Part shown: positions 57,961-64,000 of the stretch, piece after piece
Layout: each line of letters starts with the position of its first letter
Numbering within the stretch: the stretch's first letter is position 1
IMG/VR virus record: IMGVR_UViG_3300034134_000022
Location: 1 to 64,000 of that record
Reading direction: 5' to 3' (one strand)
Length of the DNA stretch: 64,000 nucleotides
DNA from: a virus
Notes under the pieces: generated by a model
Databases searched by the model: none
Told to the model about the DNA's origin: nothing
The model's input: the letters and a program-made list of their open reading frames with translations, nothing else
Program-made: the position numbers and the translations under genes

Positions 57961-58644
57961 ATGACTCTTATACCCATCCACGAAACGTTCCAGCAAACAT
58001 TGCAGGGAGAAGGCTATTGGGCTGGCTCTCCCGTTGATTTTGTGAGGCTTGCTGGGTGCCCTCTTTCTTGCTCATTCTGTGACACTGGTTACGCCGACGG
58101 CGGCAAAAACACTCCCAGAACTGAACGCAGCATCGATGACCTGGTGAGCGAAACCCGATCTCCCCGTGTCGTCATTTCTGGCGGCGAACCGTTCATCCAC
58201 AAACAACTGCCTGCCCTGGTTGATGCTCTGGAGTTGACAGGTAAACAAGTCTGTATTGAAACCTCTGGCGCGTTCTGGCAGCCGGTGTCTGCAACTGCCT
58301 GGGTCACACTCTCCCCGAAGCAGCACATCTCACCGAAATATCCTGTCCATCCAGTCATGTGGCTACGCGCAGACGAGATCAAAATTGTCATTGCCACTGG
58401 CGTAGAGGTTGACTTTTACGATCGCCACATACGTTATTGGTCAACGGACTGGCACGACTGGGCAAGCCAGCACCTGAAAGAGTTTGAAGCGTACCTTCAA
58501 CGGCTATCACCAACTAAACATATCTTCTTGCAGCCCGAATGGGGTGATAGGGAGCGCACATTGCCGCTGGTATTGAATTTGTTGCAGAAGCACCCAAATA
58601 TGCGGCTCTCGGTGCAGCTCCATAAGCTGATAGGAGTGCAGTAA
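57961..58644 (+). CDS. queE: 7-carboxy-7-deazaguanine synthase (radical SAM)
   Basis: [37 protein letters not shown]...VVISGGEPF...IETSG...VTLSPK...FLQPE...LSVQLHK is colinear with E. coli QueE. Confidence 0.9.
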
Positions 58645-59099
58645 TGAGCCAGTCACATTATCCGCCGGAGTTGCAGGGCAAAATCGCGCCCTATCGGCAG
58701 GCGATCGCCCATCCTACTCGCCCAAGTCCCATCCTTTTTCACTACCAGATCAGCACCACCATGCGCCGGCAGCACGGCAACCCGCCGATCTGGACTGATT
58801 TCCACTACCATGATTTTCGTGTGACGTTGCATCTGCAAGCCATGCTCGAACCGGCTGCGATGTACGGTATCGATATGGTCGAAGCAGAACTGCGGCTGCG
58901 CGACTGGGCAGAGCAATTGCCAGAGGTTGTAAACAATCACCCAAGCTGTCAGGGCGGCACCACTGAGGAACTTTGCTTGTACTTCGTTCAAATGCCGCTG
59001 GATGCTCACATGACGCTGCTGCGCGTGGATGTGTCGGAGGTGACAGAGCGAGTGACTAGCCTGATTCTGACTCGCTCTATGCCCCTGGACTGCAACTGA
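58644..59099 (+). CDS. divergent QueD/PTPS-like T-fold protein
   Basis: HYHDFRVTLHL...YGIDMVEAELRLRDWAEQL...NHP..GGTTEELCLYF...LLRVDVSEVTE parallels QueD HGHSFMVRLEI...IIDFAELK...PTSEVLA. ATGA overlap with queE. Confidence 0.55.
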   Translation: MSQSHYPPELQGKIAPYRQAIAHPTRPSPILFHYQISTTMRRQHGNPPIWTDFHYHDFRVTLHLQAMLEPAAMYGIDMVEAELRLRDWAEQLPEVVNNHPSCQGGTTEELCLYFVQMPLDAHMTLLRVDVSEVTERVTSLILTRSMPLDCN

Positions 59100-59138
59100 G
59101 CTAAAGCTTCACCCGTTACGGGAATTCCCGTAACGGTA

Positions 59139-59573
59139 TCAAGCATCAGTTTCCTCGGCAGTCACTTCAACCGTTAGACCCATCGCTAAATCATCGTCTT
59201 GGTCGTCTTCAATCTCGGCGTTGAGTACAACAACACCCGTGCCACAACCACTGCCAAAGACCTCTTGAAAGGTGAAATAGTGCTTCTCCGGCTGCACGAT
59301 CGTCACACGCGATTGGTGATACTGCACAGGTTTGCCGCACTGTCCTCGCATCATCACCCAGACGCAACCGGGACGAGTGCGGGCGGTTTTAATTTTGAGT
59401 GCTTGCCTGCCGCCGTTGGTGGAATGGAGAAACTCCGGATCGAAAAGCTCGTAGCCACGAACCCAATAGCTCTCTCGATCCTTTTGATATAGCAGGGCAA
59501 TTTCAGGTCGGGAAGCAGCTTTGACGATCGCGCTTGTCGCAGCAGCAGCCGTCTTTGTGGCAAGTTTACCCAT
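59139..59573 (-). CDS. hypothetical protein
   Basis: 144 aa with an acidic C-terminus. Confidence 0.5.
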   Translation of the reverse strand: MGKLATKTAAAATSAIVKAASRPEIALLYQKDRESYWVRGYELFDPEFLHSTNGGRQALKIKTARTRPGCVWVMMRGQCGKPVQYHQSRVTIVQPEKHYFTFQEVFGSGCGTGVVVLNAEIEDDQDDDLAMGLTVEVTAEETDA

Positions 59574-59696
59574 GCTTTTTCCCTGTATCAGGATAGAGCA
59601 ATTGTACTATTCTTCGATGTAAAATAAATGGGCACGATCGCATTCTGCTAGTAACAGAACGCGATCGCTAACCAGCACTTTGTTAGGAGCAAAGCA

Positions 59697-60488
59697 ATGG
59701 CTGAATCTAATTTACCGGAGTTTGATCCGGTAAAGTTTTATCTTGGGAAAGTCTGCAAACGGCTGCACAATTGGCACTTCACGGGAAAAAGCCTACGCTA
59801 TCGAAGCACTTCTGTTTGTATAGAGTGCCATAAATTTCATCAATCGCAACCCCAAACAATTCAGAAGAAGATCTGCTATCGAGAAGCAAATCGTGAACGG
59901 TTGCGCCAAGTAAGTCATGACAGATATTGGTTAGATCCACAAAAGTATAGTGCTCAAATGAGACTACACCGAGAGGCTAACCGTGAGCATTGTAAGCGTA
60001 TTCGATTAGCCAGGTATGCAAGAAACCCTCAAAAAATCAAGTTAGCCGTCAAGAGATACTACCTTCGGCACCGAGAAGAGATTTTGGAGCGCTATAGGCA
60101 ATCTTATCGGCAAGACCCTGCAAAGCGAAGGATTAAGCTTCAAGCGAACCGCAAGCGTAAAGCGATGAAGCGCGGCAATCATAGTGTTCCGGTTACTAAA
60201 GAGCAACTTCAAAGACGACTTGATTATTTTGATGGTTGCTGTGCTTACTGTGATCATGCACCAGTCGCTAGCTTGACCATCGATCATTTCATACCCGTTG
60301 CAAAAGGCGGCGCTGATTGTCTTGGAAATATTGTTCCGGCTTGTTTAAATTGCAATATCGAAAAGCGCGATAGAGATCCAAAAAAATGGTTTCAAGCTCA
60401 ACCCTTCTATTCAAAGAGAAGATGGCTGGAAATCTTGAGCCTTTTAGGAAAATCTGACGAGAACTATGACCAAATCCCGCTTCTCTGA
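59697..60488 (+). CDS. HNH endonuclease
   Basis: CAYCDH...LTIDHFIPVAKGGADCLGNIVPACLNCNIEKRDR, with a basic Arg/Lys-rich repeat region N-terminal to it. Confidence 0.75.
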   Translation: MAESNLPEFDPVKFYLGKVCKRLHNWHFTGKSLRYRSTSVCIECHKFHQSQPQTIQKKICYREANRERLRQVSHDRYWLDPQKYSAQMRLHREANREHCKRIRLARYARNPQKIKLAVKRYYLRHREEILERYRQSYRQDPAKRRIKLQANRKRKAMKRGNHSVPVTKEQLQRRLDYFDGCCAYCDHAPVASLTIDHFIPVAKGGADCLGNIVPACLNCNIEKRDRDPKKWFQAQPFYSKRRWLEILSLLGKSDENYDQIPLL

Positions 60489-60492
60489 TCAG

Positions 60493-62511: not shown

Positions 62512-62853
62512 ATGAAGACCCAAACAACAACCGCGATCGTACGCCTTCAAGTTCCTGGCTTCCACTGCTGGCAAGGGGCAACGGGCGATCGCGCTTATTT
62601 AGCTGGCCGCCATCGCCATCTTTTCCATATCGAGGCGAAGATCAGCATCTTTCACAACGATCGTGAACTTGAGTTCCATGACTTCTTAGACTTCTGTCGT
62701 GCCAACTTCCCTGGCGGGGAGATGGGAGGGCAGAGCTGCGAGATGATGGCTGAAAAGCTGATTCAGGCAATTCAGGCGCGTTATCCAGGGCGATCGGTGA
62801 CGGTCAGCGTGTTTGAAGATGGTGAGGTGGGCGCTGAAGTGAACGTGCACTGA
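62512..62853 (+). CDS. queD: QueD-like 6-carboxytetrahydropterin synthase (T-fold)
   Basis: 113 aa. FHCWQGA...AGRHRHLFHIEAKI...ELEFHDFLDF...CEMMAEKL follows the QueD/PTPS topology, with H-x-H. Confidence 0.6.
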   Translation: MKTQTTTAIVRLQVPGFHCWQGATGDRAYLAGRHRHLFHIEAKISIFHNDRELEFHDFLDFCRANFPGGEMGGQSCEMMAEKLIQAIQARYPGRSVTVSVFEDGEVGAEVNVH

Positions 62854-62860
62854 AGGGCGG

Positions 62861-63043
62861 TTAGGTGCCTTTTTCTAGGTAGCCTTTTGCAATCAGTGGA
62901 TCAAGTATCGACTGGAGTACTGCAAAAGATCTAATGTTCATGCCGTTCATTATTTGGCGTGGAGATGGAGAACGACCTTCACGATCAACAAACTGTTTAA
63001 TCCAGGTATACATTGCTTGTTGGCGCTGATTTAGAGGTTCCAT
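62861..63043 (-). CDS. LexA N-terminal DNA-binding-domain-like winged-helix protein (no peptidase domain)
   Basis: LNQRQQAMYTWIKQFVDREGRSPSPRQIMNGMNIRSFAVLQSILDPLIAKGYLE parallels LexA LTxRQxxVLxFI...GxPPSxREI...S.S.V..HL..L..KGYI. Confidence 0.5.
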   Translation of the reverse strand: MEPLNQRQQAMYTWIKQFVDREGRSPSPRQIMNGMNIRSFAVLQSILDPLIAKGYLEKGT

Positions 63044-63083
63044 AGACGAGCCTTGAGAGCGTTTGTACTACTATACTCTTCAA

Positions 63084-63332
63084 TCAGGCTACACGTTTAA
63101 GAAAGCCAGCCTTTAAAAGATCGGCAACGAATTGTTCCGTGTTTTCGGTGCTGATGTTGGAGCCGTTTTGCAGGTTGCAGCGATGGGAAACCTGCTGCAT
63201 AAACTCTTCGATCGATTGGCTAGGCGTGCGCGATCCATGCCGCATCGTCTCCACTAACGCAGTGGCACCTTCTAGCGTGATGGTGCTGCCACTAATGCTG
63301 TAAGTCTCTCCGTCGTTGGTGCGTAGTTGCAT
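63084..63332 (-). CDS. hypothetical protein
   Basis: 82-aa ORF downstream of the amidoligase gene. Confidence 0.45.
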   Translation of the reverse strand: MQLRTNDGETYSISGSTITLEGATALVETMRHGSRTPSQSIEEFMQQVSHRCNLQNGSNISTENTEQFVADLLKAGFLKRVA

Positions 63333-63340
63333 AGTGTCCT

Positions 63341-64000
63341 TTAAGCGGCAAGGCGTTGAGCTTGAGCTGGGAAGTGATGAGCACCGCCCAGTTGAATGAT
63401 GCGATCGCGGTAGAACTTCGTCAGGCTGGGCTGATTGAGCTTGTAGAACAGAGTATAACCAAAGCGGTATTCAAACTCAGTTTTCCACTCGCGACGGGCA
63501 GTAAACTCGCGCTCAGTCACTTTCTTGGGGTTGGTAGCGATCGCCCGCTCCATCCAGGTGCCGAGAAATAAAACCCAGTTGCAAGCCTTGTCAGCATCGA
63601 CTGTGCCTGAGTGCTGGCGGAACTCAATCGTGCCGTGCCGCCAGAAAGAGAGCAGATTGAGCTTGAAGTAGCGATCGCGCCCGGTCACTGTTTGATAGAG
63701 AGCTTCGAGTGAGTTGGCATTGTCAATCACCTCGAAAGCCCAGTTGATCGATTGGGTACGGTTGCCGCGATCGAAGCGCTCTAGCAGGCTTTTGCAGTAG
63801 TTGTTGTTAGAGTCACGGCGGCTCTGCGGCATCATCGCGTCCAGCACATCTTCAAACTTGACGTAGTGCTTAAACAAGTTTTTGAAGTGTTGCAGGCTGA
63901 GGTCAGCCGCGCCGAAGTGAACGTGCATCCCGCAAGACTTATTGACCTTAGCACCGAGGTTGGTCAGCGTCTCCATCACTACGCGCACCTGGCGTAGCCC
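63341..64000 (-). CDS. amidoligase (Amidoligase_2 / glutamine synthetase-like fold), N-terminus outside window
   Basis: CGMHVHFGA...YFKLNLLSFWRHGTIEFRQHSGTVDADKACNWV matches the putative amidoligase family signature. The frame stays open to the window edge. Confidence 0.55.
   Translation of the reverse strand, partial: GLRQVRVVMETLTNLGAKVNKSCGMHVHFGAADLSLQHFKNLFKHYVKFEDVLDAMMPQSRRDSNNNYCKSLLERFDRGNRTQSINWAFEVIDNANSLEALYQTVTGRDRYFKLNLLSFWRHGTIEFRQHSGTVDADKACNWVLFLGTWMERAIATNPKKVTEREFTARREWKTEFEYRFGYTLFYKLNQPSLTKFYRDRIIQLGGAHHFPAQAQRLAA

Follow-up and report, generated by a model that had tools for sequence, protein, structure and literature searches.

A probable DpdL-type 7-deazaguanine DNA-modification operon with a divergent DpdA and a linked ParB-like partner in a putative cyanophage

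Replacement of guanine by 7-deazaguanines is a major route by which phages evade restriction, and its branch leading to 2′-deoxy-7-deazaguanine (dDG) is the least understood. The virus record IMGVR_UViG_3300034134_000022 of IMG/VR, of which positions 1 to 64,000 were analyzed (the window), raises a question about these pathways: its end, from position 57961 onward, encodes a QueE-like enzyme, a DpdA-like enzyme, and a ParB-like protein, with no QueC in view. Which base would such a gene set place in DNA, and what would the ParB-like protein contribute? An earlier note on this stretch, made from the sequence alone, had proposed that a DpdA/DpdB-type inserter incorporates 7-carboxy-7-deazaguanine (CDG) or an amide made from it by a neighboring amidoligase. 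Translation of the region recovered every gene and motif named in that note where it had placed them, and our analysis leads to another answer. The region is probably a dDG operon of the DpdL type, with a DpdA of an undescribed clade and an obligately linked ParB-pseudo-methyltransferase partner.

The identity of the base hinges on the gene at positions 62512 to 62853 (plus strand), which the note had counted as the second of two QueD/PTPS-like T-fold genes. Cellulophaga phage phiST, in whose DNA guanine is fully replaced by dDG and the CDG nucleoside (dCDG) is undetectable, encodes a QueD paralog, CGPG_00067, that Cui et al. (2023; PMC10516641) proposed to be a CDG decarboxylase and named DpdL. 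Its signature, LxxxHRHxF, replaces the QueD motif CxxxHGH, and DpdL was defined in phages that encode DpdA, FolE, QueD, and QueE without QueC (PMC10516641). The product of the window gene matched CGPG_00067 in tblastn searches (E = 7e-4; 8.5e-7 in a small database) and gp125 of phage ACP17 (E = 6e-18), with reciprocal values of 8.5e-7 and 6e-21, respectively. Its stretch L-AGR-HRH-L-F (RHRHLF) fits the published signature, and the corresponding residues L30, H34, R35, H36, and F38 are invariant in 21 aligned DpdLs, including those of phiST, ACP17, and Synechococcus phage BUCT-ZZ01; invariant HRH, Glu, and SCE residues mark the alignment as a whole. Profile comparison with QueD by hhalign gave a full-length alignment (85% probability, E = 6.5e-6), the only PHROG match was to a family without an assigned function (phrog_17812), and a PDB sequence search returned only noise. 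The homology to phiST and ACP17 DpdL and the signature rule out a second QueD; the gene encodes a DpdL homolog, a predicted decarboxylase converting CDG to 7-deazaguanine.

We extended the window to ∼82 kb with 9 kb of upstream sequence (contig L088) and 8.85 kb of downstream sequence (contig L001 of ENA, which is 100% identical to window positions 52512 to 64000 and runs 8.85 kb past its end). Hidden Markov models (HMMs) built from 75 FolE, 8 QueC, and 54 QueD sequences were run on the six-frame translations of the whole ∼82 kb and retrieved nothing (best E values of 3, 1.3, and 0.06, respectively). The absence of queC and folE that the note had reported for the window thus extends to ∼82 kb, neither gene being found in the 8.85 kb beyond position 64000. 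The combination typical of DpdL phages, i.e., DpdA and QueE encoded and QueC missing, was found over the same ∼82 kb. Because a DpdL homolog is present, the absence of queC points to dDG, not to dCDG or an amide. A missing queC is the expected state of a DpdL-type pathway and is therefore no evidence for either CDG insertion or QueC-independent amidation. The argument that CDG is inserted because queC is missing thus loses its support, since the supposed second QueD is a DpdL, which has been linked to dDG in queC-less phages.

Gene neighborhoods of relatives bear on the same point. We assembled 91 loci with this DpdA clade (80 from IMG/VR and 11 from bacterial genomes; 82 unique after removal of duplicates) and located the module genes in them by tblastn. 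The usual gene order is ParB-DpdA-DpdL-(FolE, QueD, QueE). Among the 78 loci with more than 1.5 kb of downstream sequence, DpdA is followed by DpdL in 67, by QueC in 4, by neither in 7, and by both in none. DpdL and QueC exclude each other in one slot, a new and independent observation in favor of DpdL being an alternative step that consumes CDG. When more than 6 kb of downstream sequence was available (53 loci), QueE was encoded in 51, FolE in 49, canonical QueD in 41, and an amidoligase in none. The hosts are diverse and include Amycolatopsis and Pseudonocardia isolates (as prophages in large contigs), Chloroflexia, Bryobacterales, Proteobacteria, and cyanobacteria. In the four exceptional loci (L022, L030, L036, and L097), QueC lies directly after DpdA, in the slot of DpdL, which predicts that the ParB-DpdA chassis can also serve pathways of the preQ0 type. 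Seven other loci (L056, L071, L073, L075, and L084, plus the short L023 and L053) combine ParB-DpdA with FolE, QueD, and QueE and have neither DpdL nor QueC; they are candidates for dCDG in phage DNA.

The putative DNA guanine transglycosylase itself is encoded at positions 61397 to 62365 (plus strand). It matched the PHROG family of "queuine tRNA-ribosyltransferase" (phrog_887; E = 1.1e-21), whereas searches of Pfam, NCBIfam, PADLOC, and PDB sequences gave no match, the PDB searches with the single sequence and with a profile yielding noise. The tRNA-guanine transglycosylase (TGT) fold that the note had read from short motifs was found with an AlphaFold model of high confidence (predicted local distance difference test [pLDDT] score, 85.4; predicted template modeling score [pTM], 0.84). 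The top ∼30 PDB matches of the model in Foldseek were all tRNA-guanine transglycosylases (from E = 4.5e-6, probability 1.00). In BFVD, an uncharacterized protein of an uncultured phage ranked first (E = 1.7e-30), ahead of phage queuine tRNA-ribosyltransferases and of phiST DpdA3 (E = 3.7e-5). Bacterial DpdA and TGT require three invariant aspartates (D95, D130, and D256 in bDpdA). In 20 diverse members of the present clade, D87 (FIDSG), D144 (ELDQGG), and D241 (GDSSSW) are invariant; D87 and D241 align to DpdA1 motifs, and D144 was mapped by order and motif only. Taken as sequence- and model-based predictions, these features suggest an enzyme that exchanges guanine for 7-deazaguanine on DNA.

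To which DpdA subfamily does it belong? Profile comparison related it to DpdA1 of phage JenP1 (hhalign, 98.5% probability, E = 3.2e-15 over 166 columns) and marginally to gp2 of mycobacteriophage Rosebush (E = 0.0017 to 0.003). No sequence signal connected it to phiST DpdA3 (CGPG_00065), for which hhalign gave 0.3% and tblastn no match in 82 targets (the 80 loci, the window, and L001); DpdA3 is thus ruled out, with a likeness at the level of the fold only. In BLASTP comparisons, the ParB-like protein, DpdA, and the first T-fold protein of the window (Tf1; see below) had no match to ACP17 gp123, gp124, and QueD. The nearest proteins of cultured phages share 22 to 27% identity over about half the length, and the more than 1,000 homologs in public metagenomes and genomes, of ∼300 amino acids, are all unannotated. 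By sequence, this DpdA appears to form a clade of the DpdA superfamily that is absent from cultured phages and outside the described subfamilies. Its closest experimentally grounded relative is DpdA1 of the Enterobacteria phage 9g/JenP1 group, a family shown experimentally to insert preQ0; FxDSG, HxxGxT, and DSSSW are common to both, at ∼23% identity over about half of the protein. The 9g/JenP1 group makes preQ0 or G+ with (Gat-)QueC, and the annotation of the 16.6-kb dpdA region of JenP1 shows no ParB-like gene. The start codon of the window gene is ambiguous (positions 61391 to 61408). The note had derived a 17-nt overlap with the upstream ParB stop, which holds for the first GTG (61397); however, GTG 61406, where ENA gene calling starts the gene, is the more likely start because GGGAG lies 10 nt before it and the resulting overlap is 8 nt, as is typical of relatives.

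That upstream ParB-like gene (60529 to 61413, plus strand; Pfam ParB_N) is a constant companion of the clade. All 69 unique loci with visible upstream sequence have a homolog directly before DpdA on the same strand, and the ParB stop and DpdA start overlap mostly by 4 or 8 nt. This gene context strongly supports the idea that DpdA acts together with a ParB-type protein. The N-terminal 135 residues (pLDDT > 90) are of the ParB/Noc/KorB type, with Foldseek matches to Noc (7nfu; E = 1e-6), ParB, PadC, and KorB; they carry AGHGRLEAA, a nucleotide-binding motif of the GxxRxxA type (GHGR), and no DGQQR. A variable and disordered linker (residues ∼138 to 196; pLDDT < 50) leads to a C-terminal α/β domain of ∼100 amino acids that is modeled with equal confidence (pLDDT > 92) and in which P206, G213, H221, L239, G251, P270, D271, G276, H277, and D280 are invariant.

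The origin of the C-terminal domain can be traced to DNA methyltransferases (MTases). PHROG matches were to ParB-like and ParB-methyltransferase families (phrog_620; E = 5.6e-45), and the sole meaningful PADLOC match was to the N-terminal part of MTase_II (E = 3.7e-33). In BLASTP, the protein is 45% identical (E = 6e-65) to a phage ParB-N6/N4 MTase fusion (P0159; PF02195 plus PF01555), the alignment spanning the ParB domain and, beyond the linker that both proteins have, the first MTase strand (GQVWKVGPH to GDLWQLGRH; GDxWxLGxH in the fusions). An HMM of the C-terminal domain aligned to both ends of MTase domains: its first part to that first strand and its second part, weakly (E = 0.25), to the motif-I end (IFDPYSGSGTT to lFaPYpGPfvp). 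The MTase middle, with motif IV (DPPY) and the target-recognition region that the fusions keep, is missing, and the motif-I-like stretch reads PYPGP. The Pfam family N6_N4_Mtase (PF01555) did not match the domain, whose ∼100 residues compare with ∼210 for the MTase domain of full fusions (PF01555 match at residues 211 to 418 in P0159). Methyl transfer is not expected because the catalytic middle is missing and the motif-I-like stretch is degenerate. Presumably, the domain is a conserved, internally deleted, and noncatalytic derivative of a β-class N6/N4 DNA methyltransferase. It occurs in 412 representative clusters (50% identity), always at the C-terminal end in full-length proteins (∼240 to 340 amino acids); one protein, P0121, is 100% identical to that of the window, and a tblastn search with the domain against cultured phages gave no match. 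The MTase-like tail described in the note is thus real, but it is a strongly conserved domain rather than a decayed one.

Is this protein a DpdB? In Salmonella Montevideo (Gedara et al., 2023; PMC10164549), a TGT-fold, three-aspartate DpdA likewise lies beside a gene of the ParB superfamily, and its product, DpdB, is an ATPase that bacterial DpdA requires for base insertion. However, DpdB is a member of the DndB/SspE branch and has DGQQR as its motif and an SspE-like C-terminal domain made of helices, whereas the window protein is ParB/Noc-like, with GHGR and an α/β MTase remnant; together with the PADLOC match to MTase_II only, these differences rule out a DpdB ortholog. The element also differs from the Montevideo system in having no DpdC to DpdK, no restriction component, and a different predicted base. 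Of the two-component inserter proposed in the note, the ParB partner stands and the DpdB type does not.

A ParB partner of a phage DpdA is not entirely new, and the note's premise that phage DpdAs act alone was too strong. In Rosebush, where dPreQ0 accounts for ∼28% of G, the gene of the ParB-like gp1 overlaps that of the DpdA gp2 and is followed by QueC, QueD, QueE, and FolE (gp1 to gp6), and the 2019 paper on phage CRB2 suggested ORF1 as a counterpart of DpdB. As here, the start of DpdA lies within the end of a ParB-like gene and deazaguanine synthesis genes share the operon, and the ParB N-terminal domains are homologous (hhalign, 95.8%, E = 7.5e-9). In Rosebush, however, QueC occupies the place usual for DpdL in this family, the ParB-like protein has no MTase-derived C-terminal domain, and the DpdAs are only marginally similar, as noted above. 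The term "ParB" occurs nowhere in Hutinet 2019 or Cui 2023, and ParBc proteins are frequent, unexplained neighbors of phage DNA-modifying enzymes. We also observed an unannotated ParB-like gene directly upstream of a DpdL homolog in Faecalibacterium phage Roos (PP479939.1; L102, 5300 to 6336); it is 33% identical to the ParB domain of the window (E = 7e-10), and the pair lies at the end of the linear record.

How, then, would the precursor be supplied? The first gene of the module (57961 to 58644, plus strand) encodes a QueE-like radical-SAM enzyme, as the note had stated. It matched Pfam Radical_SAM (E = 1.4e-10) and Fer4_12 and the "QueE-like" phrog_2076 (E = 3e-34), and its cluster motif CPLSCSFC is of the form CxxxCxxC; in NCBIfam, five QueE models ranked top at 66 to 112 bits, under their cutoffs of 200 to 300. 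The stop of QueE is overlapped (ATGA) by the start of Tf1 (58644 to 59099, plus strand), which stands where QueD would be expected and is a divergent T-fold protein resembling PTPS and QueD. Its Pfam PTPS match is below threshold (E = 0.017; 15.6 bits versus a cutoff of 22.4), and it aligned to the QueD homolog of PDB entry 2oba (E = 5e-4), with HYH facing HGH and LPE facing LDH. Its nine homologs include four with an organism name, all cyanobacterial (Timaviella, Leptolyngbya, and Oscillatoriales). Invariant residues of the family include H44, H54, H56, and E132. Where QueD has CxxxHGH, Tf1 has the loop NPPIWxD (NPPIWxDxHxH), with Trp in place of the catalytic Cys, and the change of LDH to LPE turns the Asp-His dyad into Pro-Glu; both changes are kept across the family, whose profile aligns to QueD or DpdL weakly (E = 0.02). 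A canonical QueD is ruled out at this position by the absence of the catalytic Cys and of the dyad. Of the two QueD/PTPS-like genes in the note, this one can therefore be retained as a divergent T-fold protein, not a canonical QueD, and the other is DpdL. From its sequence, Tf1 may be a Cys-independent QueD substitute or something else.

Tf1 was found in the window and three further loci only (L005, L006, and L090, the last from an Oscillatoriales metagenome-assembled genome [MAG]). All four have the order QueE-Tf1-ParB-DpdA-DpdL, with DpdA identities of 75 to 93%, and like the window, the three relatives have no FolE or canonical QueD within reach. Because FolE, canonical QueD, and the QueD catalytic residues of Tf1 are absent, precursor supply would rest on a host contribution; from general knowledge of the folate and queuosine pathways, we infer that the host supplies dihydroneopterin triphosphate (H2NTP), perhaps also 6-carboxytetrahydropterin (CPH4). 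In the window, the operon is interrupted between Tf1 and ParB by an HNH endonuclease gene (59697 to 60488, plus strand) that matched Pfam HNH (E = 5e-9) and numerous HNH families of PHROG and probably represents a mobile insertion of the homing type. A 144-amino-acid orphan open reading frame (ORF) on the minus strand (59139 to 59573) precedes it; this ORF has no match in Pfam or PHROG, was seen among all loci only in the window and L001, and lies outside the pathway. The two together (59139 to 60488) look like a homing-type cassette inserted in the operon, because the HNH gene is missing at this position in L005, L006, and L090, where 70 to 160 bp separate Tf1 and ParB.

Collectively, these data suggest the following route. 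The host would supply the pterin precursor, QueE would make CDG, and DpdL would strip the carboxyl group from CDG to yield 7-deazaguanine. The TGT-fold DpdA would then exchange guanine in double-stranded phage DNA for this base after replication, and the resulting dDG would protect the phage DNA from restriction. The translationally coupled ParB-like protein would probably act as an NTP-dependent DNA-binding or loading partner of DpdA, functionally analogous to DpdB and of independent origin. The closest described system in terms of the predicted end product, 2′-deoxy-7-deazaguanine, is that of phiST (FolE, QueD, QueE, DpdL, and DpdA3; PMC10516641), which likewise combines QueE (here a QueE-like enzyme), a DpdL with the LxxxHRHxF signature, and a TGT-fold DpdA without QueC. 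Unlike phiST, a lytic marine phage, the element studied here appears temperate (it encodes an integrase), has a ParB-like partner, and is devoid of FolE and canonical QueD.

Several facts count against a dDG operon in this element. The decarboxylase activity of DpdL is, for every member of the family, a proposal, and coexpression of dpdL and dpdA of phiST and ACP17 in E. coli yielded no dDG (PMC10516641). The DpdA described here is not DpdA3, the type that accompanies DpdL in phiST. FolE and QueD, part of the set by which DpdL was defined, are not encoded in the ∼82 kb searched, which is part of the element's genome, and Tf1 is devoid of the QueD catalytic residues. The HNH cassette splits the operon, and the evidence linking DpdA to the ParB-like protein is contextual.

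Some of these facts lend themselves to other explanations. The inserted base could be CDG (giving dCDG) or another 7-deazaguanine, with DpdL binding or tailoring a pterin or deazapurine or acting after insertion. The failed reconstitution would fit such a scheme, a DpdA2 has been reported to insert CDG when CDG accumulates, and the seven loci with neither DpdL nor QueC suggest that this DpdA clade may accept CDG. We nevertheless regard it as unlikely: in the DNA of the DpdL-encoding phage phiST, dDG is present and dCDG undetectable, alternative CDG-consuming steps would be expected to exclude each other as DpdL and QueC do, and the invariant HRH, Glu, and SCE residues of DpdL indicate an enzyme under selection. 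That the whole module is vestigial in this element is less probable still, despite the lack of FolE and canonical QueD in ∼82 kb, the HNH cassette inside the operon, and the altered Tf1. All module ORFs are intact and keep every family-invariant residue, the HNH gene is intergenic and disrupts none of them, and the recurrence of the FolE-less QueE-Tf1-ParB-DpdA-DpdL layout in four divergent cyanobacterial elements (75 to 93% DpdA identity) argues for selection. The least credible alternative, to which we assign a very small probability, is the one raised in the note, whereby an Amidoligase_2 protein would, at the expense of ATP, turn the 7-carboxylate of CDG or dCDG into an amide or a conjugate, giving 7-amido-7-deazaguanine (ADG) or a new amide-linked base without QueC. 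The phage ATP-dependent amide ligase CmoY, which attaches glycine to 5-carboxymethylcytosine in DNA, is a precedent, and the amidoligase gene is only ∼0.5 kb beyond DpdL (63341 to 64000, minus strand, continuing to window-equivalent position 64207). The gene is indeed an Amidoligase_2 on the opposite strand, as the note had seen (288 amino acids in full in L001; Pfam E = 9e-46). However, it belongs to a convergent minus-strand group with an 82-amino-acid ORF and a LexA-type gene (62861 to 63043, minus strand; 60 amino acids; Pfam LexA_DNA_bind, E = 7.5e-13) that is the last of the group and is unique to this element. By tblastn, none of the 91 related loci carried the amidoligase, not even L005 and L006, in which the downstream sequence exceeds 8 kb; the 82-amino-acid ORF and the LexA-type gene were in no related locus, the latter being seen in the window and L001 only. 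DpdL, moreover, is predicted to remove the very carboxylate that the amidoligase would need, and phage Amidoligase_2 genes are usually discussed in the context of peptide or cell wall modification modules. Synteny thus rules out the amidoligase as a member of the pathway; because none of the 91 loci has it and its gene group is a separate one on the opposite strand, it very likely has no connection with the deazaguanine module. The LexA-type gene likewise lies outside the module.

A further alternative concerns the ParB-like protein, which might travel with DpdA independently of base insertion: it could act as a nuclease or a transcriptional regulator, serve in partition, or be a decoy against methylation-dependent defense. 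Proteins with a ParBc domain are found alongside many unrelated phage DNA-modification genes, DNA is modified in E. coli by the DpdA1 of phage 9g in work that mentions no ParB-type partner, and the window protein has no sequence relationship to DpdB. We consider such independence doubtful, since adjacency in 69 of 69 loci on the same strand, mostly with 4- or 8-nt overlaps and in hosts from cyanobacteria to actinobacteria, would be hard to reconcile with it. Over the 91 loci examined, the ParB-like gene adjoins this DpdA clade, and no match to the C-terminal domain of its product was found in cultured phages. Unrelated ParB types have also come to lie beside DpdA in Rosebush and in the bacterial dpd islands, whose DpdA requires DpdB. 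A dDG operon with a ParB-type partner of DpdA therefore remains the reading that we favor. Beyond it, one may tentatively envisage, as a possibility that falls somewhat short of probable, that the clade is a further, undescribed DpdA subfamily of obligate two-component enzymes, in which a ParB CTPase-type protein with a noncatalytic MTase remnant loads or positions DpdA on double-stranded DNA in an NTP-dependent manner for insertion of 7-deazaguanine.

The element that carries this operon may be a temperate cyanophage or a phage-plasmid, as judged from its gene content. The window also encodes a major capsid protein, an integrase (50837 to 51811, minus strand), a DUF3854-helicase, and a DUF5131 protein, and L088 adds 9.1 kb upstream of position 1 with a portal gene and, at L088 positions 1 to 1723, a ParA/CbiA ATPase, a ribbon-helix-helix (RHH) protein, HU, and a Uma2 nuclease. 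Past the window, L001 carries the complete amidoligase gene followed by PadR, WDGH, N6_Mtase-like, DUF932, and helicase-like genes. The N6_Mtase-like protein (L001, 14559 to 15599, minus strand; window-equivalent ∼67070 to 68110, 4 kb past the window) has 346 amino acids and a weak match to its family (E = 3e-7), and it may represent a second, independent DNA-modification function of the element. Metagenome scans found no continuation past the end of L001 or before the start of L088. Named homologs, from Leptolyngbya sp. FACHB-541, Timaviella, and an Oscillatoriales MAG, point to filamentous cyanobacteria, and the closest relative is apparently an entire 113.6-kb contig of Leptolyngbya sp. FACHB-541, to which L005 appears to correspond; a DNA-level search of the region against 50,697 cultured-phage records revealed no relative. 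We also noted a 39-bp inverted repeat (37 of 39 positions identical) with arms ∼53 kb apart, one at the end of the portal gene region (353 to 390) and the other at the junction of two small minus-strand ORFs (53448 to 53486). Scans for promoters and terminators returned fewer sites than expected by chance and were hence uninformative.

These findings show DpdL as part of a compact operon whose DpdA belongs to a different clade and has a universally linked ParB-like partner, and they correct the tempting amidoligase route. The operon family is large, the C-terminal domain of the ParB-like protein alone comprising at least 400 protein clusters at 50% identity. Because culturable hosts, among them Amycolatopsis, Pseudonocardia, and Leptolyngbya, carry the operon in prophages, it provides tractable new material, and phage Roos, a cultured gut phage, is a possible experimental handle on ParB/DpdL systems. 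The questions opened are whether DpdL is a decarboxylase, whether phage DpdAs need a ParB-type NTPase, and what role an exapted, gutted MTase domain plays. Tf1 may be a Cys-independent replacement of QueD or a new deazapurine-tailoring enzyme, in which case the base of the cyanobacterial elements could differ from dDG. If DpdA of this clade does depend on its ParB-like protein, a missing ParB-type partner may be one reason why heterologous reconstitution of dDG has failed.

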